Of a stretch of 13,926 nt of DNA, positions 1 through 13,926 are shown one piece after another. How positions within the stretch are numbered: position 1 is the stretch's first letter; the number at the start of each line of letters is the position of its first letter. The stretch lies in IMG/VR virus record IMGVR_UViG_2529292830_000019; one strand, 5' to 3'. The notes under the pieces are model-generated. The model had not been told where the DNA came from. It did not search any database and saw nothing but the letters and a program-made list of their open reading frames with translations. A program made the translations under genes and the position numbers. The DNA is from a virus. Taxonomy: Duplodnaviria > Heunggongvirae > Uroviricota > Caudoviricetes.

Positions 1-30
1 ACACCCACTCTATTTAAATACCGTCTTTTT

Positions 31-75
31 GTCACTGTGTGTCACTGGTTGTCACTCTCCGTCACGGTATGTCAC
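31..75. repeat. Five direct GTCAC repeats at exactly 10-bp spacing (31, 41, 51, 61, 71)
   Basis: Read directly: tGTCACtgtg / tGTCACtggt / tGTCACtctc / cGTCACggta / tGTCACcaca. Lies just downstream of the last minus-strand gene. Confidence 0.6.
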
Positions 76-81
76 CACAAG

Positions 82-375
82 TTAACGTCGTAACCGCTCC
101 GGCTTCTTCCAGTGGTAAGTAATTTTTTCTTTCTCCTGGTACATCTCCACGCGGCGACGATATGACAACAACTCCAGAACTCTGGTGCGTATATTGCGTA
201 TATCCACGCCGTTAAGCTCGATACCGTCACGGCGCATCACCTCAGCCACCACACGCGCGTAATTTTCGGCTATCACGCTGTCCGGCTGCGTGGCCTCCTG
301 TTTGCCTGCTTCCTGGCTGATTCCGGTAACGCGACGGATTATTTTTAGTAGTTCGGTTTCGCTCATTCTCGTCAT
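82..375 (-). CDS. Hypothetical protein, 97 aa, last gene of the packaging operon
   Basis: ATG at 375..373 overlaps the terL stop (ATGA). No family recognised; residues 5-25 are weakly helix-turn-helix-like. Confidence 0.5.
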   Translation of the reverse strand: MTRMSETELLKIIRRVTGISQEAGKQEATQPDSVIAENYARVVAEVMRRDGIELNGVDIRNIRTRVLELLSYRRRVEMYQEKEKITYHWKKPERLRR

Positions 376-2033
376 ACCCCATCAAACGCCGAAAGCCGCT
401 CTTTGTGGCTGTCGCTTATATCAAATGCAAATTCCTCATGTTCTGCCTGGAATGTGCCAAACGCCATCAGAGCCGCAACGCTCGGGTCTATCTTGTTGGA
501 TGATTTTTTCTTGTTCGGCTTGATATTGGCGTTCGCGTCACTCTGCATCACAACATTACTCATTGACCAGGCCAGCACCGGATCGCCACGATGCACAATC
601 ACCTTCCGGTTAACAAAAACTTCGAACGATTTCGCCGCCGGACTGAAACGAAGGTATGTTTGCGGGAACGGCTCCACCTCAAATCCTGCCCCCTGTAGCT
701 GCGTCCTCAGGTGCGTGGCGTTCCATGTATCGAAGCCCACCAGCCTGATATTGAAATTCTCTGCATCCGCCATGATGTCATCACGGATACGGTCATAATC
801 AATGCAGTCACCCGGTGTTGTGCGTATCCAGCCCGCCTTTACCCACTGGCGATAGATGGCGCGGTTTTTATTGGCGGGGTTCTGTAGCTGAAATTCAGGC
901 AGATAGTGACGGGAAACCAGCATAATCTTTTTACCGACCGGAAAGGCATAGCACACGCTGGAAATATCGCTGGTTGATGATAAGTCCAGCCCCGCGTAGC
1001 ACTCCTGCCCGTATAAATCCGCCTCCGCGAACGTTCCGGCGCACTCCGCCCATGCACCGTTACCCATCCACGGCGTAGCCCCCTGACACCAGATATTGAA
1101 TCGCTTGGTGAGCATTTCCACCCACTGCGACGGAATACCCCGCGCTTTCTGGATGGTTGAGGCCAGTTTTTCACGATCGACGGAAACATCGATATTGGGA
1201 TTCGCCTTTATCCACATCGCCGGATCGTCAACCTCGCTTTCATCATCCAGCTCGTAAATCAGCACGAACATGGATTCGTTCACCTCTTCACCATCCAGTA
1301 TCTGGCAGCAATAGTCATAGTGTTGTTTACAGGCTGAAACAACGTTGCTCCCCGATGTGGTGATGGCAAATAACAGCCCCTCCGGACGCGCCCCCATTCC
1401 CAGTTCAAGCGCGGAATAAACCCCGTTGTCAGGGTGCAGGTGATATTCATCCACAATGGCAAGACTCGGGTTTGTACCTTCAATGGTTGCCGCTTTTGCT
1501 GCCAGTGGCTTTAACAGGCTGTTGGTTTTCGGGTGTATCACCTTGTGTGCCTGAATATTTACCCGCTTTCGTAACGGTCGGGATAAAAGGCACATCTGAC
1601 GCGCATCATCAAACACGATCCGCGCCTGATCACGACTCACGGCGGCGGTGTAAATATCCTGCTGCCCGTTTTCCATAACCAGAAACCAGTTAGCCAGGAT
1701 AGCGGCGACCGTGGATTTGGCATTTTTTCGCGGCACTTCAATGAATGCGCTGGTGTATTTGCGCCGTCCGGTGGCCTTAACCTTAAAGCCCAGGATGCAC
1801 GCAAAGGCGAACTGCTGCCACGGCTCCAGCTCAATGGGGCTACCGCGCATTGCGCCTTTTACGTGCGGACACACCCTGGAAAAGGCAATAAACCGCTCCA
1901 CGACCTCCGGATCGAACGTGTAAAGGGGGTTTTCAAGGTCAGAAAAATCCCGTTTAACGGCCTGTTTCAGTCGTTTACAGGCCGTAATTTTGCCGTTTTT
2001 TACGCCTTCTGCGTACTCATGCCAGGCGGTCAA
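372..2033 (-). CDS. Phage terminase large subunit (HK97/Terminase_1-like), 553 aa
   Basis: Length and N-terminus (MTAWHEYAEGVKNGKITACKRLKQAVKRDF...) are typical of this family. First in-frame start is TTG at 2033..2031, preceded by GAGGA; it overlaps the terS stop by 17 nt. Confidence 0.88.
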   Translation of the reverse strand: MTAWHEYAEGVKNGKITACKRLKQAVKRDFSDLENPLYTFDPEVVERFIAFSRVCPHVKGAMRGSPIELEPWQQFAFACILGFKVKATGRRKYTSAFIEVPRKNAKSTVAAILANWFLVMENGQQDIYTAAVSRDQARIVFDDARQMCLLSRPLRKRVNIQAHKVIHPKTNSLLKPLAAKAATIEGTNPSLAIVDEYHLHPDNGVYSALELGMGARPEGLLFAITTSGSNVVSACKQHYDYCCQILDGEEVNESMFVLIYELDDESEVDDPAMWIKANPNIDVSVDREKLASTIQKARGIPSQWVEMLTKRFNIWCQGATPWMGNGAWAECAGTFAEADLYGQECYAGLDLSSTSDISSVCYAFPVGKKIMLVSRHYLPEFQLQNPANKNRAIYRQWVKAGWIRTTPGDCIDYDRIRDDIMADAENFNIRLVGFDTWNATHLRTQLQGAGFEVEPFPQTYLRFSPAAKSFEVFVNRKVIVHRGDPVLAWSMSNVVMQSDANANIKPNKKKSSNKIDPSVAALMAFGTFQAEHEEFAFDISDSHKERLSAFDGV

Positions 2034-2373
2034 GCTCGTCCTCTTCCTCTGTTTCCGGTGGATTTCTGCGGCGACTTACCGGGTCAAAACCCAGCAAAGA
2101 AGCCATTTTGATCATTATTCTTTCAGCGTCAGCCTTTGCGCTCAGGGCGGGGTTTCTGCTCTCGCTGCCCTGACTGTTAACAATGCTGAACCCGCGCGTG
2201 GCAAGGTCTTCGACGGCTTTGCGGTATATGGAGTAGTTAACGCAATACAGCTCCAGATTGCTCCAGTCGGCGGGGGTAAGGTCTTCCCGTCCGGAAAGCT
2301 GGCGCGATTTTTCCTTCCACTGCCTGACCGCGATTTCATCCAGGTAAGCGGGGGCTTTTGGTGGTCTTGCCAT
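2017..2373 (-). CDS. Phage terminase small subunit, P27 family, about 118 aa
   Basis: MARPPKAPAYLDEIAVRQWKEK... and the C-terminal region match the P27 terS pattern. I chose ATG at 2373; the ORF track's upstream start at 2514 adds a hydrophobic, non-terS-like extension. Confidence 0.72.
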   Translation of the reverse strand: MARPPKAPAYLDEIAVRQWKEKSRQLSGREDLTPADWSNLELYCVNYSIYRKAVEDLATRGFSIVNSQGSESRNPALSAKADAERIMIKMASLLGFDPVSRRRNPPETEEEDELDRLA

Positions 2374-2661
2374 GTTCTTTTTTCGCCCAATTATTTTCAA
2401 AAAAATTCCCGTGCACAAAAATTTGAGGAGGCGGTCGGTGTCCGGCAGGGACGGTTTCGTCCTGAAAACCACCCCCACCCCCTCTGACGGCCTCACCAGC
2501 GATTGCGAAAACATTCCATGACCTCGCGGTCACGGTCGGTTAATTGCTTCGCTGTGGTGCGTTCTGTGCGCCCTGTCCTGTTGGCTTTGTGCCCTGTCTC
2601 CTGTGTCTTCCATAAGTCACGCTGCCTTATCAGTCCACGTATCAGCCTGGTTTGCTCCTGT
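2374..2661. other. Non-coding HNH-terS intergenic region; candidate cos / terminase recognition region
   Basis: 288 bp with no convincing ORF. Contains the tract CCACCCCCACCCCCTC (2469-2484), a direct repeat tgtgc(g)ccctgtc (2565-2577 and 2588-2599), a hairpin GGACG-gttt-CGTCC (2446-2459) and an A/T-rich stretch next to the terS start. In HK97-type cos phages the site lies between HNH and terS. Confidence 0.3.
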
Positions 2662-3102
2662 TCAGTCATCATCGCCATACATCCAGTCGTTACGGTGTGC
2701 TGCCCGTTCTTCCTGCTCGCGATACATGCCCGCCTTACGGTTCGCTTTCGTGGCTGGATCTTCCCGTGTCGTCTTACGGTTGTGGCACGTCTGGCACAAT
2801 GCCTGGTGGTTCCACTCAGGCCAGAAGAGAACATCACCGCCGCCATTGATGGGGATGATGTGATCCACCACAAGAGCTGGCGTATAAATCCCCTTAGCCA
2901 GACAACGCACGCATAACGGGTTTTTGCTCAGGTACAGGGCGCGGTATTTGTCCCACTGTCGGGAATACCCGCGCGCGCGGCGGTGTCCCCGTCTGGCATC
3001 CTCTGCACGCCATACAGCCCGTCTGTGCTCTTCACACTTGCCGGACTTCACGCGCTTATTACAGCCCGGCTCAGTGCATCGCCTTAATGGTTGCCACGGC
3101 AT
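2662..3102 (-). CDS. HNH endonuclease (phage terminase-associated), 146 aa
   Basis: Cys-rich CxxC pairs plus the HNH core (VVDHIIPINGGGD...WNHQALCQTCHNRKT). ATG at 3102 overlaps the upstream stop (TGATG). Confidence 0.85.
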   Translation of the reverse strand: MPWQPLRRCTEPGCNKRVKSGKCEEHRRAVWRAEDARRGHRRARGYSRQWDKYRALYLSKNPLCVRCLAKGIYTPALVVDHIIPINGGGDVLFWPEWNHQALCQTCHNRKTTREDPATKANRKAGMYREQEERAAHRNDWMYGDDD

Positions 3103-3404
3103 CAGTACACCCCCACATCACGATAAACCGACCAGAGCGCAGAAATAGCCATAGGCAGTTCAGACTGCTCCACTGGTGAAACTGCTTCCCTGTTCTCGTA
3201 CAGGAAAGCGATGTACATCAGGCAACCAACACGCATTGCCGGGGTAAATTCCAGCCCGTCTTCAAAACGTTTCCCGATATGCTTCTGGCAGGCTTCCAGC
3301 GCCGCATCGGTATACATTTTCAGAAGTTCGCCTTCACCGGATAAATCATCATCAAGTCGAAGATGTGCCCTGACTTCATCAGGTGTAATTCTGGCTTCAC
3401 TCAT
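3102..3404 (-). CDS. gp6-like head-tail connector / head completion protein, about 100 aa
   Basis: MSEARITPDEVRAHLRLDDD...EGELLKMYTDAALEACQKHIGK resembles the Phage_connect_1 (gp6-like) N-terminus. Start ATG at 3404 with GGGAGA upstream; it overlaps the portal stop by 8 nt. Confidence 0.7.
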   Translation of the reverse strand: MSEARITPDEVRAHLRLDDDLSGEGELLKMYTDAALEACQKHIGKRFEDGLEFTPAMRVGCLMYIAFLYENREAVSPVEQSELPMAISALWSVYRDVGVY

Positions 3405-4611
3405 CTTTTCTCCCTTTAATTTCCACAGTCTGTTTCCATGCCTGGCTGAACTCATCACCACCTTCACGCGGCGGCATACCCTCGCGTTCGCGAGCTTCGT
3501 TCGGATTCATGATCCCGCTCTTAATCCCTTTCTCATACGTGGCATAACGTTCGGTGGGTGTGGCGCGCAGTAAATCGGCTGAATCAAACTCAACCAGATA
3601 ACGGGTACCAGGTACGGGAGAAGTCACCAGCAAAGCGGCCTTGATTTGCTGTTCGAAGTTCGCCAGCCACGGGCGCATTGTCATGGTCAGAAATGCGCGG
3701 CTCGCCTCACTGAAATTGCTGTAGGTGCTGTTGCTGTATTCCTGAAGAAAAATCGGCGACACGTTGAACATCCTGGCGATGTCTTCAATGGAGAAGCGAC
3801 GGGAGGCCAGCCATTCCGCATCCTGGTTACTCATCCCCAGCTGCCTGTAATCCATGCCCCCTTCAAGGATTGGCGTTTTTCCGGCATTTTTCGCCCCCTT
3901 GTAGCGTTCCAGTGCGTCTAATGCCTGTTTACCTTTCACGCCGTCCAGCCATTCACCTGACGTGATAATCCCTGCCGCCATCATGCCATCTTTCATAATG
4001 CTGGCTCCGTGACGCTGTTGAGCAAGGCCAAGCCCCAGCGCCTCACGGCAAATCGTGACGGGGGAACGCCCCAGAAAGCCATCATCCGAGGCATAGCGGA
4101 GATGCAGAACTTCTTCCTGTAAATACGTGCGCACCGTTCCTGTACAGGGTTCGGTGATGGTATAGCGGTATTTGTGTGTGCCTGTGCGTTCCGGTACAAC
4201 ACACCCCGGCGCATAAGGATGAAGTGATTTTGGCTGCCCGTCCCGCCCCCACTCAATAACCGCATAGGCGTTACCGTTCAGCAGGCAGTGACGCATCATT
4301 GTGCGTTTAAACTGGTAAGGTGTCAGGCACGAATTAGGCTGCTCATTCAGCAGAATATCTACCGGGTGACTGTCCAGCCATTCCCGCGCCTCTCTGCCCT
4401 TATCATTGCGTACCAGATACAGGTAACACGGCATCGTGGCCACCGCCTCAGCGATGACAGAAACCGCGTTCATCACAGCAGGCAATGATTCAGCCGTCCC
4501 GGCAGAAACATATTCTCCGGATCCGGTATTTGGTACACCAGACAACGCCAGAAAATCATCAATGGACAGGTTACGCAGATCGCTTTTTTTACGACTAAAA
4601 GGCCACCACAT
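3397..4611 (-). CDS. HK97-family portal protein, about 404 aa
   Basis: Size and sequence are portal-like. I chose ATG at 4611 (MWWPFSRKK...), one nucleotide after the protease stop; the ORF-track start at 4701 would overlap the protease gene. Confidence 0.85.
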   Translation of the reverse strand: MWWPFSRKKSDLRNLSIDDFLALSGVPNTGSGEYVSAGTAESLPAVMNAVSVIAEAVATMPCYLYLVRNDKGREAREWLDSHPVDILLNEQPNSCLTPYQFKRTMMRHCLLNGNAYAVIEWGRDGQPKSLHPYAPGCVVPERTGTHKYRYTITEPCTGTVRTYLQEEVLHLRYASDDGFLGRSPVTICREALGLGLAQQRHGASIMKDGMMAAGIITSGEWLDGVKGKQALDALERYKGAKNAGKTPILEGGMDYRQLGMSNQDAEWLASRRFSIEDIARMFNVSPIFLQEYSNSTYSNFSEASRAFLTMTMRPWLANFEQQIKAALLVTSPVPGTRYLVEFDSADLLRATPTERYATYEKGIKSGIMNPNEAREREGMPPREGGDEFSQAWKQTVEIKGRKDE

Positions 4612-4612
4612 A

Positions 4613-5173
4613 TCACAACCCCGCCAGTTCAGCCCAGCGATGACGATTATTTCCTGCCGGGCGTAATTCAGGGTACTGTGCAAACAACGAACGGTGGGCA
4701 ATCTCCACGCCGGATTCGGGATAAGCAGGCATCGATGTTATCGTGATTTCACGGAGTTCTGCTGCGGTTACAGTACGCAGATACGGTTTTTGCGCGATAT
4801 TCCACTCCTCGCATAATGCGCGAAAGCCAAAGCTCATTCCTGTAATATCGCCACGTTCCACCAGCGTAAGCACATCTTTTCCAAGCTGGGTATTTGGCGG
4901 TGTCAGTTCAAAACGTAGCCCGGTGTTATCCTCAGTCAGTACCAGTGAGCCGGATTTGGTACGCCCCAGCAGTTGGGTATAGTCATGCTCATACAGACAG
5001 CGCACATCATTACCTGCCGCCAGATAGTCAGCAAAAGCCCCCGGCGTGAACTGTTCGCGAAACTCGTCCCAGATAATTTCTGAAAGGCTGTTCCAGCGAA
5101 CGGCATAACCCACCAGTTTTTTATCGCTGGCGGTCAGTTCAGATGTACGGATTTCAAAATCGGTGTTTTTCAT
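4613..5173 (-). CDS. HK97-family prohead protease (S78/U35), about 186 aa
   Basis: MKNTDFEIRTSE...GYAVRWNSL...GMSFGFRA...ITSMPAYPESG matches the prohead-protease pattern. ATG at 5173 with GGAG 7 nt upstream; the ORF-track start at 5398 lies inside the capsid gene. Confidence 0.85.
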   Translation of the reverse strand: MKNTDFEIRTSELTASDKKLVGYAVRWNSLSEIIWDEFREQFTPGAFADYLAAGNDVRCLYEHDYTQLLGRTKSGSLVLTEDNTGLRFELTPPNTQLGKDVLTLVERGDITGMSFGFRALCEEWNIAQKPYLRTVTAAELREITITSMPAYPESGVEIAHRSLFAQYPELRPAGNNRHRWAELAGL

Positions 5174-5191
5174 CGGTGTACTCCATAAAGC

Positions 5192-5216
5192 TGAAAAAGG
5201 AGGCCGAAGCCCCCTT
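5192..5216 (-). terminator. Intrinsic terminator/attenuator between the capsid and protease genes
   Basis: On the minus-strand RNA: GGGGGC-UUCG-GCCUCC (six base pairs including one G-U, UUCG tetraloop) followed by UUUUU, then the protease RBS and ATG. Confidence 0.45.
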
Positions 5217-5222
5217 TGCTCA

Positions 5223-6368
5223 TTACTTGCCAGCCTGAATTTCCAGAATCTTGATGGCGTTCGAATCCACCACACCACCGCCCAGATATTTCTGGGTATA
5301 GATGTTAATGAATCCAGGCTCGCTGAAATCCGGACGGGTACGCGTACCGGTTTTATGGTCAACGATGAAATAACCGCGCTTAAAGTCACCGACTGCAATC
5401 ACACCGTCCGGCATAAATTCCAGATATTCAACCGGAAGCCCCAGCAGAGAATCAGGATCACCAGCCTGTAAACGATCGCGCCAGATGTAATCACCAGTGG
5501 CATTTTTCAGTTTTTGTGCGGAGGCGGCTGTATTTGAGTTCATCACCCATACAGCTTTTTTGCGGTACTTATTGCGCAGCGTAAATTTCAGGTCAATCAG
5601 CATATCGGCGCTGAGACTGCCAGTCACTTTTTTCGTCTGGAGCGTACCGAAAGGACGGGTTTTGTCATTATCCGTAGTGCGCGGGAAAGTCAGGAAACCT
5701 TTGGCTTTTTTCTCGCCATCCCCGGAAACCAGATCCGTTTCTTCGGTATCAACGAAAGTGTCGCCAATTTCAGAAGATAACCAGCCCATAATATCGACTT
5801 CGGAAAAATCGATAATTTCCTGAGTGGTTTTCGGGTAAGCGTAGATCGGATACAGGCGGATACTGACTTCATTCAGTTTTGGGGTTGCCGTCTGGTTACG
5901 TGCCGCACCTTCTTCGCCGTGTCCCACGACCGCACCCCCGGCAGAAACCAGTTGCTTAAATTCATTACTGTGAATGGTTTTAACAGTACAGATTTTACGC
6001 ATCACCGACTCATCAGAAAGCTGACGCATAATTTCTCTGTTCAGTTCCGGGATAACCGTATAACCACCATCAGCCGGAACACTGCCGGACAGGTTGCGGG
6101 TTTCCCCGGTCAGAATGTAAGAGCGTAGCTCATTTTTGGTGATTTTATCTTCGACGGGAACACCAGGCTGGTTACGTTCTTCATCAGCCACAGACTCGAG
6201 GCGGGAAATTTCTGTGTCGAGGGAATCGGCTTTTGCACGCAGTTCATCAAACTGTTTGCCTTCGTCATCGGTTAGACTGCGGTTTTCACTGTCGGCTTTT
6301 TCCAGCAGGGATCGCATCTGGTTTTTCAGGGCGGTTTTTTGCTGGCGGAGTTCGATTAATTTCTTCAT
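5223..6368 (-). CDS. HK97-family major capsid protein, 381 aa
   Basis: N-terminal coiled-coil delta-like region (MKKLIELRQQKTALKNQMRSLLEKA...) followed by an HK97-fold-like body; size is typical. Confidence 0.9.
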   Translation of the reverse strand: MKKLIELRQQKTALKNQMRSLLEKADSENRSLTDDEGKQFDELRAKADSLDTEISRLESVADEERNQPGVPVEDKITKNELRSYILTGETRNLSGSVPADGGYTVIPELNREIMRQLSDESVMRKICTVKTIHSNEFKQLVSAGGAVVGHGEEGAARNQTATPKLNEVSIRLYPIYAYPKTTQEIIDFSEVDIMGWLSSEIGDTFVDTEETDLVSGDGEKKAKGFLTFPRTTDNDKTRPFGTLQTKKVTGSLSADMLIDLKFTLRNKYRKKAVWVMNSNTAASAQKLKNATGDYIWRDRLQAGDPDSLLGLPVEYLEFMPDGVIAVGDFKRGYFIVDHKTGTRTRPDFSEPGFINIYTQKYLGGGVVDSNAIKILEIQAGK

Positions 6369-6517
6369 GAAGGTTTTCTCGCATTGGTTAAGATTCAGGA
6401 CGTGAAACCAACACGGGGGGAGCGCCGCCCGACACTCTCGGCATCTCGCAGATCAACCCGGCATCGCGCAGGGGGTCAGGCGGCATTGTGGCGGCTCACG
6501 TCTGAGTGCCACACGCC

Positions 6518-6545
6518 AACATATACATAAAAATCAGTATGTAAA
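6518..6545 (-). promoter_or_regulatory. Candidate sigma70 promoter for the head/packaging operon (-35 TTTACA, 16-nt spacer, -10 TATGTT on the minus strand)
   Basis: Hexamers read by eye. Lies between the upstream terminator and the capsid ATG, giving a leader of about 140 nt. Confidence 0.25.
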
Positions 6546-6562
6546 CATCAACCAGAATCACC

Positions 6563-6590
6563 GAACAACCTGGAACAACCACGAACAAAT
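6563..6590 (-). repeat. Three 10-bp-phased repeats (minus strand ATTTGTTCgt / GGTTGTTCca / GGTTGTTCgg) upstream of the candidate capsid promoter
   Basis: Read directly; plus strand shows GAACAACC at 6563 and 6573 and GAACAAAT at 6583. The same TTGTTC/TTGTGTC motif recurs at 12350-12400 and 12614-12676. Confidence 0.55.
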
Positions 6591-6602
6591 AATTTACAAA
6601 AC

Positions 6603-6634: not shown

Positions 6635-6641
6635 TATCGCT

Positions 6642-6890
6642 TTATTGTTTCACTGGCTCCCGCATTCTGCGTCTTATTTTCCACAAATATTCGATCATCG
6701 CTTCCACCTGCTCACGGTTGGTTGCGAAAATTTCCCCGGTCAGTGAGCTACGCAGAAAATCATGATGATCCACAAAAAATAACGCATCGGAAGAAAGCAA
6801 CCGACGATATTTTTTTGCTGTCGTGGTTTCCAGATCATCAAAACCATGAAGCTTTTTATGTTGCTGAACTTCTTCAAATGTCACTGGCAT
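6642..6890 (-). CDS. Hypothetical protein, 82 aa
   Basis: ATG at 6890 overlaps the upstream gene by 10 nt (coupled). No family recognised. Confidence 0.5.
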   Translation of the reverse strand: MPVTFEEVQQHKKLHGFDDLETTTAKKYRRLLSSDALFFVDHHDFLRSSLTGEIFATNREQVEAMIEYLWKIRRRMREPVKQ

Positions 6891-7411
6891 GTATCCCCCT
6901 TTGCTGCCCGGCGCTGGCGCTTGTGCTTCTCATTCAGCACCATCAGCCGTGTTTCTGCCTCCTGCTGTTCCTGTGGTGTCACTTCCCCACATGGCTGGCC
7001 TTTCAGGTCGTAACGTGCGCCACCAGCTATCAGGGCGCGGTAATAGCGCGGAGACTGCGCATAGGATGCCAGCGTCGCACGTAATACCCCCGACCCGAAT
7101 GCCAGCCCCCTGACGGCGATATCCTGCATCAGGTCGTCGAATATCCCCACCTTAAGCGGCTTCGGTGCTTTATGGCTGAATAAGTCAGGCCACATCTCAG
7201 TGAGGCGGTTAACGCGTCGGCGGTTTTTGCGCTGCCTTTTGGTCATATGCTGCCACGGTGTCGCCCCTGTGGGCTTCTGCTGTGCGTTCTGATTGCCGGG
7301 TATCACTTTATGCGCCGATGTGGTTTTATCCTGCTCTTGCGCCGCCTGCGTCGTTTTCTGCGGCGTGCCGTAAATGCCTTTCGGCTTCCGGTTAATGGTC
7401 AGCGTTGTCAT
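6881..7411 (-). CDS. FinO/ProQ-domain RNA-binding protein (RNA chaperone-like), 176 aa
   Basis: Basic N-terminus followed by WPDLF...KPLKVGIFDDLMQDIA...LRATLASYAQSPRYYRALIAGGARYDLKGQPCGEVT, which parallels F-plasmid FinO (WPGLF...) and ProQ (KPLKIGIFQDLV...RVDLDGNPCGEL). GGGGGAAGG RBS. Confidence 0.7.
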   Translation of the reverse strand: MTTLTINRKPKGIYGTPQKTTQAAQEQDKTTSAHKVIPGNQNAQQKPTGATPWQHMTKRQRKNRRRVNRLTEMWPDLFSHKAPKPLKVGIFDDLMQDIAVRGLAFGSGVLRATLASYAQSPRYYRALIAGGARYDLKGQPCGEVTPQEQQEAETRLMVLNEKHKRQRRAAKGDTCQ

Positions 7412-7447
7412 GCCTTCCCCCGTAATTACTCTGTTCGCTGTTGTGAA

Positions 7448-7873
7448 TTAAAACGGTATGTTATCCCCGTACGGGTCATCGTGCTGGCTTGTCTGTTGTT
7501 TTGCCCTGTTCAGTGCGTCAGTGGCCTGGCCCTGTTGACCTTTTTTGCCGCCCGGTCGCGCCGTTCGCGCACTGATTACGCTGTCTGCAATAACCTGCCA
7601 GCCCTGCCGCGTTTCCCCGTTCTGGCCTGTCCACTGGCTCACCTGCATGTTACCCGCCACGCTCACCAGTTCGCCTTTGTGGTGTTTTGCCAGTGCGTCG
7701 GCCTGTCTGCCAAACACCAGGACAGATAACCACATCGTCGCCGTTCCGTCATCTGCCTGGCTGCATGGCAGGGGAACCGCCATACTCGCCATCGCCATTT
7801 GTGTCCCCTTGCTGGTGGTCTTTAACTGCGGGTCAGCCACCAGCCGCCCGTAAGCCGCTATCTGTGCTGTCAT
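7448..7873 (-). CDS. ssb: Single-stranded DNA-binding protein (SSB), 141 aa
   Basis: OB-fold-like core (WLSVLVFGRQADALAKHHKGELVSVAGNMQVSQWTGQNGETRQGW) and an acidic C-terminal tail ending DDPYGDNIPF, matching the SSB ...DDDIPF tail. ATG overlaps the upstream stop (ATGA). Confidence 0.8.
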   Translation of the reverse strand: MTAQIAAYGRLVADPQLKTTSKGTQMAMASMAVPLPCSQADDGTATMWLSVLVFGRQADALAKHHKGELVSVAGNMQVSQWTGQNGETRQGWQVIADSVISARTARPGGKKGQQGQATDALNRAKQQTSQHDDPYGDNIPF

Positions 7874-8115
7874 GCTGTCTGTTCTCCGGTTTTAACGTTG
7901 ATGGTTGTCACCTGTTCCGCTTCGGCAATCTCCCGTTCTGTCAGTGTGGCAAAGTTTGCCGCTGCCGTGGTCATGAATGCGCTTACCAGTTCGGGATGTG
8001 CTTTTGCGTACCCTTCTCCCGCGTTGCGGTCGATGATTTTTATCGCCACCCTCAGCCAGTGTTCTGTCAAATCAAGGGTGTGAGATTGTGGTTTTTTTGC
8101 GTGCTTCGTTGTCAC
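7870..8115 (-). CDS. Hypothetical protein, 81 aa, first gene of the SSB operon
   Basis: GTG start at 8115..8113 with GAGGT 7 nt upstream. No family recognised. Confidence 0.45.
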   Translation of the reverse strand: MTTKHAKKPQSHTLDLTEHWLRVAIKIIDRNAGEGYAKAHPELVSAFMTTAAANFATLTEREIAEAEQVTTINVKTGEQTA

Positions 8116-8159
8116 AGGCTTTACCTCACAGCAATAAAATAAAATTTTTGCATTTTAAC

Positions 8160-8400
8160 CCTTCACCTGTTCACCTTTTGAGATTTTCCCTTTTTATTCA
8201 TAATGTTAAGGAGTGAACAGTTTCACAAAAACTATTCACCAACTGTTCACCACTGTTCACCCTTAAAGCTCAATAAATAATCAAAAAGGTGAACAGTGAA
8301 TAGTTTGGTGAACAGTTCACAAATAACTGTTCACCCTATAATGTACTGATATAAAAGATATTTATAACAGGGTGAACAGTGGTGAACAGTTATTCCATAA
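8160..8400. repeat. Iteron-type replication origin: about ten copies of CTGTTCACC / GGTGAACAG in both orientations in AT-rich DNA, directly 3' of the primase gene
   Basis: Forward copies at 8167, 8243, 8253 and 8327; reverse copies at 8212, 8288, 8307, 8381 and 8391; variants CTATTCACC (8232) and TGAATAG (8297). Several are 10 bp apart. The motif equals the P4 type I iteron TGTTCACC as I recall it. Confidence 0.65.
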
Positions 8401-8402
8401 GT

Positions 8403-10217
8403 TTAATTTTTGCTGTCGTCATTTGTGACCGATGCACATGATGGCATCCAGTCTTCTGAATCCTCTGTCAGTGTCACATTTGAACGCAAACCGTGCTTCG
8501 TTTTCCGTTTTATATACTCCCTGCCATATTCCGCCATTGCCCCCGGCATATCTTTACCGAAGCGCGTCAGTGTTACAGGTTTACCGAATCCGTGTGCCCT
8601 CATATATGCCAGATAGGCGTGATAAAGATACCTGCGCGGACTGAACGGAATAATTTCGGCATTACCCACTAACAGACCATCACACATTACCGACGACATG
8701 AGATAGCCACAGAAGTCCACCAGCGAATCGCCCTCGCGTTTTATCACCAGAGCTTCTTCTGATTTCTGCTGCTCATACAGCAGGCGTTTAGCTTCGTCCT
8801 GGTCAGAAAAACGAGTAAGCAGATGGCGAATCACAACCGCCAGCTCTCCTTCTATTTTTTCTGCCAGCATGGGGTCGCGCTCGTTCTCCGGTACAACCTC
8901 CGAAAAATTGAATATCACCCGACGACGTGAGATCCCCCCGCTGCGGTCACTGAATGACATGGCGTTATTGTTCACCGCCAGCACGACCGCCTGAATGCGT
9001 GTTGAGTAGGGGGCTTTATGCTTCGGGTCGATTGCCACCTTGTCACCGCCTGTAATGGCCTTAATTCCTGCGCCATCACCAGCGTAGCGGGTCATATCCG
9101 GCATGATAATCAGCGAAAAGCCAACCACTAACGCGCGTTCCCTTGCATCTTCCAGCGCCTTCATGCTTGCCGATACTGTGTTGGCCTTACCCGCCAGCAT
9201 AGTGCAAATCTCCGCCATCACGCTTTTACCACTTCCCCCTGGACCTGTTACCTCAATGAATAACTGCCAGTCGTACCGGTTCGCCAGCACCATGAATAAT
9301 GCAGCCAGCACGCGATCCGTCTTGCGGTCATTCTCTGCCACCGAGCAGCGTAACCACTTCCAGAAATTCGGCGCATGTGTTGCCAGCGTTTCCCCCTCTG
9401 CTGGTGGGCTGAAAGGTAATTCACTGGCAATTAACAACCAGTCGTTTTTGTTATGCTCCCGAAAATTACCTGTTCTGGTATCAAATACCCCGTTACTGAA
9501 TCCAATCAGGTTACGGGCTGTATTCCCCATTACAGGCAAACTTAACTTCATGGTATCGACCGCCGATTTAATGGCGTTCTGCGAATAGCTGATCTCCGCA
9601 TCAATGAAAATCTGCGCCATAGCACGCTGTAACTCTTTATCCTGAATCGGCTCCCATACAACGCCGTTGTAATGGTGAACAGTGTCAGAGTCGGCATGAA
9701 TCGCCAGTTCACCGCCATAATGTGCCAGGAGAACTTCGCCGCGCTGGCTTGCTCCCATCTGGTTAAGCGCCAGTGGTGCGGCGCTGTCTTCTGTTTTTTT
9801 CTTAACAGGAAGCTGAATCACCAGACCATCAGAAAGATTCTGGCGCTCACGGGCCAGATATTCGCGCCAGTTCTGCACCTCCTGACCGTGCATACCCTCA
9901 GGATAAAAATTTGCATCCTGTACGCCTGCCGCCGCCAGCTTCTGACCAATCGCCTTTATCATTACTGGCGCAAGATATCCGGCCCTGAATATGCGCACGG
10001 ATTTTCTGCCTTCCGGCACAATTTGCAGCTTATCCAGTTCGGATAACTGCTGCTCCCCAAGCCACACAGGAGGCTCATTATCTCCGGCCATACGCGCGTC
10101 ATGTTCCTGCCATTGTTTTGCGTGTGACCAGGCATCACTACCCGCAAAAATAATGACTTCTGTTTCTTTGTGTTTTATGCCGCGTGACTGCTGTTTTACG
10201 TTCGGTGCCAGTTTCAT
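8403..10217 (-). CDS. Primase-helicase replication initiator (P4 alpha / D5-type, SF3 helicase Walker A), 604 aa
   Basis: Walker A GPGGSGKS within a D5-like helicase region, with a primase-like N-terminal half. ATG overlaps the upstream ORF stop (ATGA); the iteron origin lies immediately downstream. Confidence 0.85.
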   Translation of the reverse strand: MKLAPNVKQQSRGIKHKETEVIIFAGSDAWSHAKQWQEHDARMAGDNEPPVWLGEQQLSELDKLQIVPEGRKSVRIFRAGYLAPVMIKAIGQKLAAAGVQDANFYPEGMHGQEVQNWREYLARERQNLSDGLVIQLPVKKKTEDSAAPLALNQMGASQRGEVLLAHYGGELAIHADSDTVHHYNGVVWEPIQDKELQRAMAQIFIDAEISYSQNAIKSAVDTMKLSLPVMGNTARNLIGFSNGVFDTRTGNFREHNKNDWLLIASELPFSPPAEGETLATHAPNFWKWLRCSVAENDRKTDRVLAALFMVLANRYDWQLFIEVTGPGGSGKSVMAEICTMLAGKANTVSASMKALEDARERALVVGFSLIIMPDMTRYAGDGAGIKAITGGDKVAIDPKHKAPYSTRIQAVVLAVNNNAMSFSDRSGGISRRRVIFNFSEVVPENERDPMLAEKIEGELAVVIRHLLTRFSDQDEAKRLLYEQQKSEEALVIKREGDSLVDFCGYLMSSVMCDGLLVGNAEIIPFSPRRYLYHAYLAYMRAHGFGKPVTLTRFGKDMPGAMAEYGREYIKRKTKHGLRSNVTLTEDSEDWMPSCASVTNDDSKN

Positions 10218-10501
10218 TTTTTACCCCCTGCGACCAGCATTTCACGAATTTTGCGGATATGACTTGCTGCACGTTTCTGATTTACGGCTTTACGATGGCC
10301 CACCAGCGTGAAATCACGCCGGAACTGATAAACAGGCATCACGCAGTCATATTCGTAGCCATCACGGCGGTAAGTGATGCGCCGTTCTGCCACGCCTTTT
10401 ATCGTTCCCGTGCCGCCATAGTTATCCCGGAAAATATCGCCGGGGCGGATTTCAGGCCGAGCGGGGCCGCTGGCAGTAAAGCCAGAAATTTTCTGTTTCA
10501 T
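10214..10501 (-). CDS. Hypothetical protein, 95 aa, translationally coupled to the primase
   Basis: ORF with ATG at 10501; its stop overlaps the primase start. No family recognised. Confidence 0.5.
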   Translation of the reverse strand: MKQKISGFTASGPARPEIRPGDIFRDNYGGTGTIKGVAERRITYRRDGYEYDCVMPVYQFRRDFTLVGHRKAVNQKRAASHIRKIREMLVAGGKK

Positions 10502-10506
10502 GGTTT

Positions 10507-10734
10507 TTATTCCGCGTTTATTTTTTTATCGTGAATTTCGATCGCTTTATTTAATTCGACGATTACCGTATCGAGTAATGAAATAAACGCACCAGCAAGA
10601 TTAGACTCACGCTCATCTTCCGGCGCATCACTTAAACCATCAAGCCAGATAAGAAATATTTGCCTCAAACATTCACTGTTAGTCAGTGCGTTTTCTGCAT
10701 GGCTCATTGATTTAAAATAACGGTCATCATGCAT
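10507..10734 (-). CDS. Hypothetical acidic protein, about 75 aa (alternative start at 10779 gives 90 aa)
   Basis: ATG at 10734 overlaps the upstream stop (ATGCATGA). The longer start would overlap the upstream gene by 53 nt. Confidence 0.45.
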   Translation of the reverse strand: MHDDRYFKSMSHAENALTNSECLRQIFLIWLDGLSDAPEDERESNLAGAFISLLDTVIVELNKAIEIHDKKINAE

Positions 10735-10963
10735 GGTGCGCCCCCTGAATATCTGCGGTAAGAATTTTGCCTGCTTCATTCAGCGCCATATCAGCACTAA
10801 GTTGCATAACAGCCAGTGAGTGAGGAACGAAAGCCCCGGCATATTCTGTTTCGCTGGTGGCGCGCTTATGCGCCTTGTCTGCGATAACAGAAATATCAAT
10901 CAACGCGTGCATCAGCGTTTTGATGGCTTCGGCGGCTGCGTCCGGTGTGGTTTTATTGTGCAT
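10727..10963 (-). CDS. Hypothetical protein, 78 aa
   Basis: ORF in operon context; ATG at 10963 overlaps the upstream gene by 11 nt. No family recognised. Confidence 0.45.
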   Translation of the reverse strand: MHNKTTPDAAAEAIKTLMHALIDISVIADKAHKRATSETEYAGAFVPHSLAVMQLSADMALNEAGKILTADIQGAHHA

Positions 10964-11159
10964 AGGTTTCCCCCTGGCGAATACGGGCAGCGAATACCAT
11001 CACGCAGCCATCAGGAGATTGCTGACGCGCTTCCTGTTCGCTGGTGGCCTCAATGGTAATCACGCGCGGTTGTGCCGTGCTCAGGGCGATAAAACGCCAG
11101 ATGTATTTATTCAGGTTGTACGAGTCCCGCCCTTGCGGGTGTCTGGTATAATTTCTCAT
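10953..11159 (-). CDS. Hypothetical protein, about 68 aa, first gene of the leftward replication operon (alternative GTG start at 11219 gives 88 aa)
   Basis: ATG at 11159 preceded by GAGGT with 4-nt spacing; a GTG at 11219 is also in frame. Directly downstream of the operator/promoter region. Confidence 0.4.
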   Translation of the reverse strand: MRNYTRHPQGRDSYNLNKYIWRFIALSTAQPRVITIEATSEQEARQQSPDGCVMVFAARIRQGETYAQ

Positions 11160-11258
11160 AGCTACCTCGATACGCTTTCTATCGTTGGTGGTTAGAAGCC
11201 CTGCGAGTGGTAACGACACTTGCGGGGCTTTGTCTTTTCATCGATTACCTTAATAAAG

Positions 11259-11339
11259 GTGTCAGCCACTATACTAGTGACAGGTGTCAGCCACGTCAAT
11301 AGTGTTTTTCTATTTTCTTGTGTGTATACTGTCAGCCAC
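11259..11339. promoter_or_regulatory. Divergent operator region: three GTCAGCCAC repeats (11261, 11286, 11331), palindrome TGACAGGTGTCA (11278-11289) and two TATACT -10-like hexamers
   Basis: Read directly. Repeats overlap the -10-like elements of both the leftward promoter and the rightward promoter for the RHH gene. Confidence 0.5.
11271..11299 (-). promoter_or_regulatory. Candidate leftward promoter for the replication operon (-35 TTGACG at 11299..11294, 17-nt spacer, -10 TAGTAT at 11276..11271)
   Basis: Hexamers read on the minus strand. The spacer contains a GTCAGCCAC repeat and the palindrome TGACAGGTGTCA. Confidence 0.4.
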
Positions 11340-11360
11340 CTAATAACAAGGAAATCAGAT

Positions 11361-11540
11361 ATGGCAACGAAAGCAGTTAATGGAAAATCCAAAAAACTTG
11401 AGGCACGAGTACCCCATGCAATAGCTGACGCTGTAGAAAATTTAAAGGAAGAAGGCGAAAGCACTGGGCAATTTATCGTTTCGGCGCTTGAAGGTGAGAT
11501 CAAACGCCGCCAGCGCCGGAAGGCCAAAGAGCAGGAATAA
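11361..11540 (+). CDS. Small ribbon-helix-helix (CopG/Arc-like) DNA-binding protein, 59 aa; candidate repressor
   Basis: ATG at 11361 with AAGGA 8 nt upstream. KLEARVPHAIADAVENLKEEGES...FIVSALEGEI fits a beta-strand then two helices. The upstream part of the ORF-track frame is probably not coding. Confidence 0.55.
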   Translation: MATKAVNGKSKKLEARVPHAIADAVENLKEEGESTGQFIVSALEGEIKRRQRRKAKEQE

Positions 11541-11597
11541 CCATCACCAGCGCCGTGGTGTAAGGTATTACGGCGCATTGCTATGCAGGACAACACA

Positions 11598-11771
11598 ATG
11601 ACCGATAAAGAATTGACCAAAACATTATCACCGACACGGAAAAGACGACGCAGAAAGATAGAGCATGAATCAGAAAGATTCGCGCCATGTGCTTTTGCCC
11701 TTGAGCAATTCCTTAAAGAGTACAGGGAAAAGCGCTCATTGCAGGTATGGCAACGAACTGAACCAGACTGA
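11598..11771 (+). CDS. Hypothetical small basic protein, about 57 aa (alternative ATG at 11583)
   Basis: ORF following the RHH gene on the same strand, with AGGA 7 nt upstream of the ATG at 11598. Contains a KRRRRK tract. Weak call. Confidence 0.35.
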   Translation: MTDKELTKTLSPTRKRRRRKIEHESERFAPCAFALEQFLKEYREKRSLQVWQRTEPD

Positions 11772-11837
11772 TTGCATTGCCCACCAGCCGCAAATGTGGC
11801 ATTGTTGGTGATGCTTTTGTTTTCCCTTGTTCTCACT

Positions 11838-11867
11838 GGCGACCCTTTTGCGGTCGCCTTTGTTTTG
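11838..11867 (+). terminator. Rho-independent terminator after the RHH/small-ORF unit
   Basis: GGCGACC-cttttgc-GGTCGCC hairpin followed by TTTGTTTTG. Confidence 0.5.
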
Positions 11868-11962
11868 CCTGTTATCCGGCAATTGTGGCGCTTCGCCACA
11901 CGGTTGATATAATTCCCCTGCACTGATCCATTTTTTTCGCAGCAGGTTAATTGTTCAGAAAG

Positions 11963-11990
11963 GCGGTTCCTTATCGGGGCCGCTTTTTTT
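11963..11990 (+). terminator. Second plus-strand rho-independent terminator
   Basis: GCGGTTCC-ttatc-GGGGCCGC hairpin (with G-U pairs) followed by TTTTTTT. Confidence 0.5.
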
Positions 11991-12131
11991 ATGCCTGAAA
12001 ATACCCGATAACATGGCTTTTTAGTTTCACCAGGACGAACGAAGCCCCGCCCCTGTTCGGGCGTATATCCAGTATTCATGGTTAGATCTCTGTGTTAGTG
12101 GATGGGTGGCGGCGGTGCGCCGCCAGCCTGA

Positions 12132-12320
12132 TTAGTGAACTGCCTCGCGGCTGTCCTTCCATGCCAGAACTTCGGATAAAGACCAGCCAACGGAACGACC
12201 GCCGAGTTTACGCCGTGATGGGAATTGTCCGGTCTTTTCCAGGCGATACCGACATGAGCGGCTCAGGCCTGTAAGTTGCTGACATTCTTTTTCACGTATA
12301 AAGCGATCTGTGCTTAACAC
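12132..12320 (-). CDS. alpA: AlpA-family phage transcriptional regulator (excisionase-like winged HTH), 62 aa
   Basis: IREKECQQLTGLSRSCRYRLEKTGQFPSRRKLGGRSVGWSLSEVLAWK matches the AlpA (Phage_AlpA) pattern. GTG start at 12320 with AAGGGGG 4 nt upstream. Confidence 0.85.
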   Translation of the reverse strand: MLSTDRFIREKECQQLTGLSRSCRYRLEKTGQFPSRRKLGGRSVGWSLSEVLAWKDSREAVH

Positions 12321-12349
12321 AATTCCCCCTTTGTTGTTTCTTAAAGAGT

Positions 12350-12400
12350 CATTGGGTGGATTATTGGGTTGGGTTGTGTCGGATTGTGTCAGGGTGTTTA
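12350..12400. repeat. Phased TTGGGT / TTGTGTC repeats (about 10-bp period) immediately upstream of alpA
   Basis: cattgggtgg / attattgggtt / gggttgtgtc / ggattgtgtc / agggtgttta. A possible alpA promoter overlaps it on the minus strand (-35 TTGCCA at 12411..12406, -10 CACAAT at 12388..12383). Confidence 0.45.
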
Positions 12401-12483
12401 TGGAATGGCAAACAGTGATGTGGTGTTCGTCGCTGAAACAGGCGCAATTAGAAAAAAACTATTTTGATTCATTTGGATACAAA

Positions 12484-12513
12484 GGCGTAAAATTCTGCAT
12501 TTACGCCTTTTTT
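12484..12513 (+). terminator. Strong plus-strand rho-independent terminator in the int-alpA intergenic region, with no annotated plus-strand gene upstream
   Basis: GGCGTAAA-attctgca-TTTACGCC (8-bp stem) followed by TTTTTT. On the minus strand the trailing U-run is poor (UUUGUAUCC). Confidence 0.5.
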
Positions 12514-12613
12514 ACATATTTTTAAGATTGATTCGCCAATGTACAAAAAAACAGTAAACCACCAGAAAATCAGACTTATAGGGAGTTAATCAGAAATAAT
12601 CATAGATAATCAG

Positions 12614-12676
12614 ATTTGTTCCAGATTGTTTGCCGTTGTTCGTCGTTGTGTCTCGTTGTTCCACGTTGTGTCCGTT
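12614..12676. repeat. Six to seven tandem 10-bp-phased repeats of (c)GTTGT(T/G)(T)C just 3' of the integrase stop
   Basis: atTTGTTCc / agATTGTTTG / ccGTTGTTCgt / cGTTGTGTCtc / GTTGTTCcac / GTTGTGTCc / GTTCtg, read directly. Confidence 0.6.
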
Positions 12677-12696
12677 CTGAAAAATCACGAAAAAAA

Positions 12697-13926
12697 TTAT
12701 ATTTCTCTGGCTATTGGCAGTGTGGTTACGTTTTCGTGAGTACCCGCCAGTATCTCTAACCGCTCTGTCCACATGTCCAGCGCATTACGTTTCGCATCGA
12801 GATAACGGGAGTGGTTATAGACTCGCTGCATCCCTGGCATCTGGTGAGCGGTGAGTTGTTCGACAATATGCGGATCCACGCCTAAATCGTTCAGCATCGT
12901 GGTAAACGTGCGCCGTATATCGTGTAGTGACCAGTGCGGATGGTTTAATTTTTTGTGCGTGAATCTGCCGTATTGCGACACGCTGGCTTCCTGTTTCAGT
13001 TCCCCGAGTAATAGTCCTGTGTGTCGGTTCTGCTCCACCAGCCGTGTGACGAACGGTAAAATGCTTTCCGGTATTGGCCTGAATATGGCGACCTTCGTTT
13101 TGCTGTGCTCCTTCGGTACTGTCCAGAGCATTTCCTTAAAATCCCCCTCCCTGATCTCCGACAGCCTCAGTTCTCCGGTTCGGCAACCAAACACAATCAG
13201 GAGGCGGATTAGTGCGCTGTAGTAGGGCGGGAATATTTTTTTATCCAGCGCCTGTAATAATTCGCCCAGTTCTTTGTTACTAAGCACGCGTTCGCTTATG
13301 CCCGGCTTTTTGCCAACGTCCACCACGTTGAGATCATCCAGAACGTTACTGACTGCGTAGCGACGTTTACGGCAGAACTTAAGCGCCTGTTTACACGCCT
13401 GCATCATGTGACCAGACGTTACGGGGGATTTTTTGCGTATCCGGTCAAAACAGGCCAGCCAGTGACGTAATTCGCATTTATCCAGTGGCATGTTACCGAT
13501 GTGCTGTATGACGTGATTATTCAGGCGACTTTTCAGGCATACATAATCGACACGGTTTTCCTTTCCGTGCGTTTCCAGCCAGTAACTGATCGCATCGCCA
13601 ACCGTTACGGGTTTTAACGCTTCCTGCACAGTGTAGTTCAGTTCATGACGTGGGTTTTTCCCTTCTGCCAGCCATGCACGACACTTTGCGGCTTTTTCCC
13701 TGGCTGCTTTAAGGCTCAGATCGGGATAGTTTCCCAGCTTCAGGCGTTCCGGTGTGGTATCCCTTCCCGTTCCAGCCCTGTAGGTGAAGTACCAGGTCAA
13801 TTTACCTGATGTTAAATATTTCACGCTCAGATTACCGCCATCGCTATAGAACGTATTTTTCTCCGCTGGCTTACCATAAAGTTTTCTTAACAATGTATCG
13901 TTCAGTTTGTTAAGCGCTCTGCTCAC
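12697..13926 (-). CDS. int: Tyrosine recombinase / integrase, P4/CP4-57 type, at least 409 aa; 5' end at or beyond the window edge
   Basis: N-terminal arm-binding-like region (LNDTLLRKL...GNLSVKYLTSGKLTWYFTYR...LKLGNYPDLSLKAAREKA) and a catalytic domain with HDIRRT and the C-terminal tyrosine region. The frame is open to the last base; the codon at 13926..13924 is GTG. Confidence 0.9.
   Translation of the reverse strand: MSRALNKLNDTLLRKLYGKPAEKNTFYSDGGNLSVKYLTSGKLTWYFTYRAGTGRDTTPERLKLGNYPDLSLKAAREKAAKCRAWLAEGKNPRHELNYTVQEALKPVTVGDAISYWLETHGKENRVDYVCLKSRLNNHVIQHIGNMPLDKCELRHWLACFDRIRKKSPVTSGHMMQACKQALKFCRKRRYAVSNVLDDLNVVDVGKKPGISERVLSNKELGELLQALDKKIFPPYYSALIRLLIVFGCRTGELRLSEIREGDFKEMLWTVPKEHSKTKVAIFRPIPESILPFVTRLVEQNRHTGLLLGELKQEASVSQYGRFTHKKLNHPHWSLHDIRRTFTTMLNDLGVDPHIVEQLTAHQMPGMQRVYNHSRYLDAKRNALDMWTERLEILAGTHENVTTLPIAREI

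Follow-up and report, generated by a model that had tools for sequence, protein, structure and literature searches.

A probable capsid-forming phage-inducible chromosomal island in Escherichia coli yifB, with a P4-type origin and no recognizable head-closure gene

Introduction

Phage-inducible chromosomal islands of the capsid-forming kind (cf-PICIs) are a known and common family of satellites, described in 2022-23. Their prototype, EcCIEDL933, was shown by genetics and electron microscopy to make its own small capsids and to take only tails from its helper phage (Alqurainy et al., bioRxiv 10.1101/2022.09.08.507074; see also He et al., bioRxiv 10.1101/2025.02.11.637232). Here, we analyze a stretch of viral DNA of 13,926 nucleotides (IMG/VR record IMGVR_UViG_2529292830_000019; "the window" hereafter), which very probably is the body of a cf-PICI, a satellite integrated in the Escherichia coli gene yifB (comM). 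A preliminary description, made from the letters of the window alone, had already read its layout as that of a capsid-forming PICI, and our comparison with EcCIEDL933 bears this out; one of the two genes that usually join heads to tails in this family is missing.

In EcCIEDL933, the capsid, protease, portal, connector, HNH, terS, and terL genes are each needed for transfer of the satellite and not for the phage: Among mutants of the packaging module, transfer was abolished in all except that of the hypothetical gene 1792, in which it was severely reduced, and the helper was unaffected (Alqurainy et al.). The same work showed that transfer requires tail genes of the helper and that induction needs alpA. 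The neck genes have been observed to form a swappable cassette that sets tail specificity, and an insertion in the capsid protein relative to HK97 gp5 has been named the connector loop (He et al.). The left arm of such elements is called the PICI module in the literature, where it is also stated that a PICI and a cf-PICI can have identical left arms. Classical Gram-negative PICIs, such as EcCICFT073, differ in using the capsid proteins of their helper and in having no portal, TerL, or head-tail adaptor of their own; SatelliteFinder counts the portal of cf-PICIs and both head-tail neck genes as forbidden in a PICI.

Results

A 14.8-kb element precisely inserted in yifB

The chromosome of E. coli NCCP 13717 (NZ_CP115984.1) matches the window at 100% identity; there, the window belongs to a 14,812-bp element precisely inserted in yifB (L001 11301-26112, L001 being the locus with 12 kb added on each side; all other coordinates are those of the window). 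The preliminary description had proposed extending the sequence in search of attachment (att) repeats and a target, and both were found. The element is bounded by the 16-bp direct repeat ATCCGCTATT(T/G)ATAAT (L001 11301-11316 and 26113-26128), and it reaches past the left edge of the window by 684 bp and past the right edge by 186 bp. yifB is present as two annotated fragments, one on each side of the element; when the flanks are joined across it, the empty site is reconstructed with 100% identity to intact yifB. This site is uninterrupted in 5,397 of 5,426 complete E. coli genomes.

The added flanks hold core genes only, with rrn-hdfR-maoP-yifB' on one side and 'yifB followed by the ilvL operon (ilv) on the other. 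No tail, baseplate, or lysis genes were found in the window, in the remainder of the element, or in the 12-kb flank on either side; by PHROGs, none of the 19 window proteins scanned fell into a tail or lysis category, while the integrase, AlpA, and the single-strand DNA-binding protein (SSB) were scanned with Pfam only. Thus, the absence of tail and lysis genes from these 13.9 kb, as claimed at the outset, holds by Pfam and PHROGs. The preliminary description had taken the DNA for a satellite rather than a degraded prophage unless such genes flanked it, and the flanks leave that reading standing.

The element is not confined to one strain: At least 80% of the window is held by 69 genomes, the best 20 of them at 96.7-100% identity, and a matching packaging module is present in about 976 of the 5,426 complete E. 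coli genomes. Related elements occupy other att sites, with other integrases.

Head and packaging genes homologous to those of EcCIEDL933

We located EcCIEDL933, the homologous element of the E. coli O157:H7 strain EDL933 (NZ_CP008957), via BLAST hits to the packaging half of the window. Of the 22 proteins of our element, 18 are homologous to EcCIEDL933 proteins (40-98% identity) and lie in the same order, which for both elements is int, alpA, icd-like, DUF4222, rep, SSB, capsid, protease, portal, adaptor, HNH, small open reading frame (ORF), terS, terL, and small ORF. The two are also alike in size (14.8 kb here versus 15.4 kb) and in having no tail or lysis genes. They differ in the head-closure gene between portal and adaptor, which EcCIEDL933 has and our element does not; in Rep, a P4-alpha/D5 helicase here and a DUF927 protein there, with only the first 145 residues in common; in the insertion site (yifB versus the phoQ|roxA interval); in the accessory gene (ProQ/FinO versus PerC); and downstream of alpA, where small plus-strand genes are annotated here and a 247-residue minus-strand ORF there.

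The genes named in the preliminary description are all on the minus strand and all score above curated thresholds, and every module is supported by Pfam, PHROGs, and NCBIfam profiles. Pfam and PHROGs uphold its calls of integrase, AlpA, capsid, protease, portal, gp6-like connector, HNH, terS, and terL. Its "complete" HK97-type head set fares less well: The named genes are present, and the prototype's gp7-like head-closure gene is not.

The HK97-fold major capsid protein (5223-6368, 381 residues; PF05065, Phage_capsid, 8e-61) is 74% identical to that of EcCIEDL933 versus 23% to HK97 gp5. It matches the solved 385-residue "major head protein" chain of PDB 9gyi (E 4e-184), presumably a cf-PICI capsid, and it retains an insertion relative to HK97 gp5 at the published position of the connector loop. 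As a side observation, the nearest solved capsid relatives after 9gyi are chains of the Rhodobacter capsulatus gene transfer agent capsid (6tb9 and 6tba, E ~2e-47), and HK97 gp5 is absent among the solved-structure matches at E <=1e-3.

The capsid gene is followed on the same strand by those for an HK97-family prohead serine protease of type S78 (4613-5173; PF04586 1e-44; phrog_80; 61% identical to its EcCIEDL933 counterpart) and a 404-residue portal protein (3397-4611; PF04860 2e-91), 80% identical to the EcCIEDL933 portal and 32% to the portal of an HK97-like prophage from strain APEC17. Next come the gp6-like head-tail adaptor Ad1 (3102-3404, 100 residues; Phage_connect_1 4e-05, phrog_40 5e-29, TIGR01560 2e-20; 56% identical to the EcCIEDL933 connector) and an HNH endonuclease, a packaging cofactor (2662-3102; PF01844 9e-10; phrog_144 7e-45; 84%). 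A conserved hypothetical protein of 61 residues (2493-2678; phrog_3173; 78%) precedes the small terminase TerS of the P27 family (2017-2373, 118 residues; PF05119 4e-23; phrog_83; 88%) and the large terminase TerL with its ATPase and nuclease (372-2033; PF03354 and PF20441; 93%), and a 94-residue conserved hypothetical protein (82-366; phrog_1561; 77%) ends the operon.

The element is thus like HK97 and the HK97-like prophages, the helper type of EcCIEDL933, in its HK97-fold capsid, S78 protease, portal, and gp6-type adaptor, and in a predicted cos packaging dependent on HNH, TerS, and TerL. It differs from them in gene order and in lacking gp7, the gp8-gp10 neck and tail genes, the tail, and lysis genes. 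In APEC17 (NZ_CP178203.1), a cf-PICI with a packaging module ~96% identical to that of the window was seen to lie inside terL of an HK97-like prophage, leaving terL in two annotated fragments (L005 8754-9497 and 24934-25962), so that this satellite sits in a potential helper and inactivates its packaging.

The 119-bp gap between the 61-residue ORF and terS (2374-2492) is highly conserved, even against EcCIEDL933, and sits where HK97-type genomes have cos, just upstream of terS. From this conservation and position, we suggest that cos likely lies in this gap, which contains the G-rich box GGGGGTGGGGGTGGTTTTCAGGAC (~2481-2459, minus strand). A 16.5-kb record from an induced prophage (LR881103) ends at the homologous G-rich box, a weak indication since records are often re-oriented to begin at terS.

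A replicon of P4-alpha type

The rep gene (8403-10217, minus strand; D5_N, DUF5906, Pox_D5) encodes an SF3 helicase of P4-alpha type with an origin-binding domain and a different N-terminal domain. Residues 137-594 are 49% identical to residues 313-776 of P4 alpha (E 4e-150), and residues 496-592 match PDB 1ka8, a "putative P4-specific DNA primase" (E 3e-24), which we take to be the origin-binding domain of P4 alpha. The preliminary description had called this protein a P4-alpha/D5 primase-helicase; the helicase stands, and a primase domain, which in P4 alpha belongs to the part within residues 1-312, was not found in Rep by Pfam or NCBIfam profiles. The N-terminal 145 residues (9783-10217) have no Pfam or NCBIfam match either. 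The DUF927 Rep of EcCIEDL933 has an N-terminus 88% identical to them, so that a common N-terminal module is joined to two unrelated helicase and origin-binding bodies, P4-alpha-like here and of the DUF927 type there.

The iteron origin of the preliminary description is confirmed. The window contains 10 copies of the octamer TGTTCACC versus 0.48 expected, and 10 or more were seen in none of 200 shuffles. Eight exact copies, in both orientations and with AT-rich spacers, lie within the 221 bp at 8168-8388, against 0.5 expected in the whole window; this is the intergenic stretch immediately downstream of the helicase gene. The type-1 repeats annotated in P4 ori/crr have exactly the octamer TGTTCACC, which is present in P4 in 11 exact copies, and the P4 crr is likewise placed just downstream of alpha. 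Because the helicase, the origin-binding domain, and the iterons all match P4, the label "P4-type replicon" is justified, and in these three respects we read the replicon, by its sequence, as one of P4-alpha type.

Two further genes of the replication region, both on the minus strand, encode a hypothetical protein of 81 residues (7870-8115; phrog_1231; 73% identical to its EcCIEDL933 counterpart) and SSB (7448-7873; PF00436 2e-16; 68% identical to EcCIEDL933 SSB). Rfam, searched permissively over the whole element (E up to 0.1), gave one spurious microRNA match in the iteron region and nothing else; an immunity-type RNA of P4 was not detected.

A packaging module without a head-closure gene

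The stop of the portal gene overlaps the start of the adaptor gene, and no head-closure gene lies between them. In EcCIEDL933, the interval between portal and HNH contains two genes, for a head-closure protein (Hc) of 112 residues that is 47% identical to HK97 gp7 and for a gp6-like adaptor. The EcCIEDL933 Hc protein has no match by tblastn in the element or its flanks, and five Hc proteins, four from satellites and HK97 gp7, gave no match at E 1e-4. The 61- and 94-residue ORFs of the packaging operon were considered as substitutes for Hc and rejected, since EcCIEDL933 has both ORFs in addition to Hc.

This arrangement is recurrent. A 701-bp junction probe has an uninterrupted match (90% identity or more) in about 143 complete E. 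coli genomes, while with the same probe the Hc-bearing form, ~340 bp longer, is found in about 390. Hc-less elements occur at yifB, thiM|rcnR, and fis|yhdJ, with differing integrases, and the Hc-less junction is also found in a second, more divergent packaging lineage. Among species-representative genomes, Hc-less versions are present in Erwinia psidii and in one Gilliamella, sister Gilliamella loci having Hc. Of the IMG/VR loci, the 46 whose adaptor is of this allele (at least 88% identical) lack Hc without exception, and so do six more divergent ones; 22 loci have Hc. A search of the phage collection for Hc-less records derived from virions found none; it gave only vB_KppS-Ant and Pmp8, relatives that have Hc. 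One Hc-less cf-PICI, in E. coli DSM 103263 (L011, fis|yhdJ), is decayed: Capsid and rep are deleted and the protease is truncated, with the stretch from portal to terL intact.

By sequence, the adaptors do not fall into separate Hc-less and Hc-bearing groups; that of KFu015 (Hc-less), for example, is 84% identical to that of vB_KppS-Ant (Hc-bearing). The satellite Hc proteins are 47-63% identical to HK97-type gp7, while portal and capsid reach only 23-32% to their phage counterparts. In APEC17, a near-identical packaging module (~96%) carries Hc and a different adaptor, which fits the published swappable neck cassette.

Integration genes, small genes, and candidate control sites

The P4-family tyrosine integrase of 409 residues (12697-13926, minus strand; Arm-DNA-bind_3 5.6e-18, Phage_int_M, Phage_integrase 3.9e-16) is 84% identical to the EcCIEDL933 integrase and 23% (E 9e-14) to P4 Int. 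The AlpA/Vis-type regulator-excisionase of 62 residues (12132-12320, minus strand; PF05930 2.7e-18) is 90% identical to EcCIEDL933 AlpA and 46% to P4 ORF88/Vis. With classical Gram-negative PICIs the element shares the int-alpA-rep left arm and the logic of AlpA-dependent induction.

Both ends of the element, outside the window edges, carry repeats. Just inside each att end there is an imperfect direct repeat of 76 nucleotides (78% identity; L001 11380-11455 and 25959-26034) with tandem GACTACACC motifs, probably the arm-type sites of the integrase. Despite the different chromosomal targets of the two elements, both end regions match those of EcCIEDL933 at 84-95% identity. At the left end (L001 11675-11833), GCGGGTTA(T) is repeated three times in tandem, with two to three copies of its reverse complement ATAACCCGC ~100 bp away; these repeats overlap an 83-residue "hypothetical protein" (L001 11749-12000), which has no PHROG match and appears non-coding. 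A short stretch like a tRNA 3' end lies nearby, at ~L001 11600-11640.

Downstream of alpA, two small genes are annotated on the plus strand, for a divergently transcribed YlcI/YnfO-family protein (11361-11540; NF041551 4e-17; phrog_949; PGAP annotation) and for a 57-residue hypothetical protein (11598-11771; phrog_21027; 98% identical to a stretch of EcCIEDL933), the latter followed by a terminator-like hairpin at 11838-11858 in a terminator scan. The longest ORF of this region is a Cys-rich minus-strand one of 295 residues (11192-12079), which conflicts with them and which we tentatively rejected as a gene: It has no family match, and PGAP annotates the small plus-strand genes there. In EcCIEDL933, the 247-residue minus-strand ORF is annotated over DNA that also encodes the 98%-identical copy of the plus-strand 57-residue ORF.

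On the minus strand follow an Icd-like small protein (10953-11159; NF033153 1e-19; phrog_6196), hypothetical proteins of 78 residues (10727-10963; phrog_5146) and 75 residues (10507-10734; phrog_2196; PGAP start), and a DUF4222 protein (10214-10501; PF13973 5e-24; 57% identical to its EcCIEDL933 counterpart). Between the icd-like operon and the divergent YlcI/YnfO gene, the repeat (G/C)TGTCAGCCAC occurs three times on the plus strand (starts 11258, 11283, and 11328; 11258-11339), preceded by a hairpin with a 15-bp stem (11195-11231). This operator-like arrangement makes the repeats candidate operators.

Upstream of the packaging operon, a ProQ/FinO-domain protein (6881-7411, minus strand; PF04352 4.6e-24) is encoded in an accessory variable region, and an 82-residue hypothetical protein is encoded after it (6642-6890, minus strand; phrog_1957; 40% identical to its EcCIEDL933 counterpart). 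In the variable slot of the ProQ/FinO-domain protein, the literature expects defense genes, and here an RNA-binding protein of the ProQ/FinO type fills it; this protein has no EcCIEDL933 counterpart, no PADLOC match, and no partner RNA by Rfam, and PADLOC assigned none of the ten small or accessory proteins scanned to a defense family. Three copies of TTGTTC with 10-bp spacing (6563-6588, minus strand) closely follow a terminator-like hairpin and are placed ~195 bp upstream of the capsid gene. They lie in a block that is invariant in four cf-PICIs, including the 80%-diverged EcCIEDL933, and may represent a control site for the packaging operon. Directly downstream of the last gene of that operon, five (T)GTCAC motifs (four TGTCAC and one CGTCAC) with ~10-bp spacing at 30-75 resemble a protein-binding array as a phased cluster; TGTCAC is not enriched window-wide (11 versus 7 expected). 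Promoter scan matches showed no enrichment over shuffles and were not used.

Discussion

Taking together the gene content and order, the homology with the prototype, the precise insertion, the P4-type origin, and the absence of tail and lysis genes, we conclude with high confidence that the window is the body of a cf-PICI integrated in yifB. As cf-PICIs are delimited in the literature, the element is a discrete integrated unit of 14,812 bp (the methods of He et al., bioRxiv 10.1101/2025.02.11.637232, use ~10-18 kb) with an integrase, a replicase module, and AlpA (AlpA, MerR, or Stl being the regulators admitted). It has its own capsid, protease, portal, HNH, TerS, and TerL, has no tail module, holin, or lysin, and is homologous to, and syntenic with, a member validated by experiment. 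Two neck genes are expected, for which the literature uses the names adaptor and connector (gp6-like Ad1 and gp7-like Hc1), and the element has the gp6-like one only. By the operational definition published with SatelliteFinder, it is a member nevertheless, because elements with 10 of 11 components are classed there as "Type B" cfPICIs, which make up 459 of 969 elements. The SatelliteFinder text is silent on which component Type B lacks; the class would include the Hc-less form.

From homology to EcCIEDL933, we propose the following life cycle. A helper phage would trigger expression of AlpA, which together with the P4-family integrase would excise the 14.8-kb element at the 16-bp att core. 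The P4-alpha-type helicase would bind the TGTTCACC iterons downstream of its own gene and replicate the circle, helped by the SSB of the element. The packaging operon could then build small procapsids of the HK97 fold, predicted to be T=4, from its own capsid protein, S78 protease, and portal; HNH, TerS, and TerL would cut at cos, putatively upstream of terS, so that the capsids are filled with satellite DNA only. Finally, the gp6-like adaptor would cap the portal, and tails made by the helper would be attached. Since the satellite Hc proteins are near gp7, the adaptors are not separable, and the loss is repeated in several lineages and genera, it is plausible that the helper supplies Hc in trans. 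Judged from the sequences, therefore, we infer that either the helper's own Hc would carry out the head-closure step or the adaptor alone would suffice.

Several points weigh against this scheme and against the element being a functional satellite. The Hc protein of the prototype has no counterpart in the element or its flanks, and an element without it could transfer poorly unless something compensates. The copy in DSM 103263 shows that such elements can degenerate in place. Rep has no detectable primase domain. Finally, inducibility, capsid size, cos ends, and helper identity would all rest on homology, as would the source of the tails.

These points lead to the strongest alternative, which we consider unlikely: The element may be a genuine cf-PICI by descent and yet a transfer-defective dead end, in which, Hc having been lost, filled capsids can neither retain their DNA nor attach to tails. 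The missing Hc, present in the prototype, the abolished transfer of all packaging-module mutants of that prototype except the one in gene 1792, and the decayed Hc-less copy would agree with this. A dead end, however, does not account well for the Hc-less junction itself, a clean overlap of portal and adaptor with no scar, or for the intact state of the remaining genes. The junction is shared by about 143 complete E. coli genomes and occurs at no fewer than three att sites with different integrases, in all 46 IMG/VR loci of the adaptor allele and six divergent ones, and in Erwinia and Gilliamella. This spread to new sites and hosts argues against a dead end. The 69 genomes with most of the window, the 976 with the packaging module, and the relatives at other att sites are likewise signs of a living lineage.

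That the element is a degraded HK97-like prophage, which has lost its tail and lysis genes, is very improbable. Its head and packaging genes are indeed of HK97 type; however, the att sites lie immediately outside the 14.8-kb unit, with core genes beyond, and the tail, lysis, and immunity modules that adjoin the head genes of an HK97-like prophage are not there. Moreover, capsid-protease-portal-adaptor-HNH-terS-terL is the cf-PICI order and not that of HK97, the identities of capsid and portal (23% to HK97 gp5 and 32% to the APEC17 prophage) contrast with 74% and 80% to the cf-PICI prototype, and the same compact architecture is kept in hundreds of genomes.

A P4-like satellite that remodels the capsids of a P2-type helper can practically be dismissed: The integrase family, the AlpA/Vis homologue (46%), the helicase and origin-binding part of alpha (49%), and the TGTTCACC iterons with their placement are shared with P4, but of the SatelliteFinder P4-like core (int, alpA, alpha, epsilon, sid, delta, psu) the last four are absent, tblastn with P4 Sid, Psu, Delta, Epsilon, and cI giving no match in the element (as the preliminary description had suspected for sid, psu, and delta), P4 gop, beta, and cII have no homologue, the P4 primase domain and immunity-type RNA are not found, and the element has capsid, portal, protease, and terminase genes of its own, which P4 lacks.

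Returning to the cf-PICI, the element is an uncharacterized member of a known family and not a new kind of system; its sole departure is the missing one of the two usual head-to-tail joining genes. It is possible, and we put it forward only tentatively, that it belongs to a recurrent sub-class of cf-PICIs, undescribed to date, which has given up the head-closure gene. No description of an Hc-less variant was found in the texts searched, and "head closure" with PICI gave nothing relevant.

The element provides a clear documented case of a P4-alpha-type replicon with iterons joined to a cf-PICI packaging module and thus of module exchange between satellite families. The analysis also confirms that a reader without tools can recognize a cf-PICI from raw sequence. 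Furthermore, the Hc-less elements are a sizeable mobile subgroup without one of the two neck genes published as determinants of tail compatibility, so that one can directly test which neck components have to be a satellite's own. If the Hc-less sub-class is real, such satellites must take a DNA-retaining plug as well as a tail from their helper, or else the adaptor alone closes the portal. Their helper dependence would then differ, and they might not form the stable tail-less capsids that, in cf-PICIs, were shown to be able to acquire tails of other species (He et al., bioRxiv 10.1101/2025.02.11.637232).

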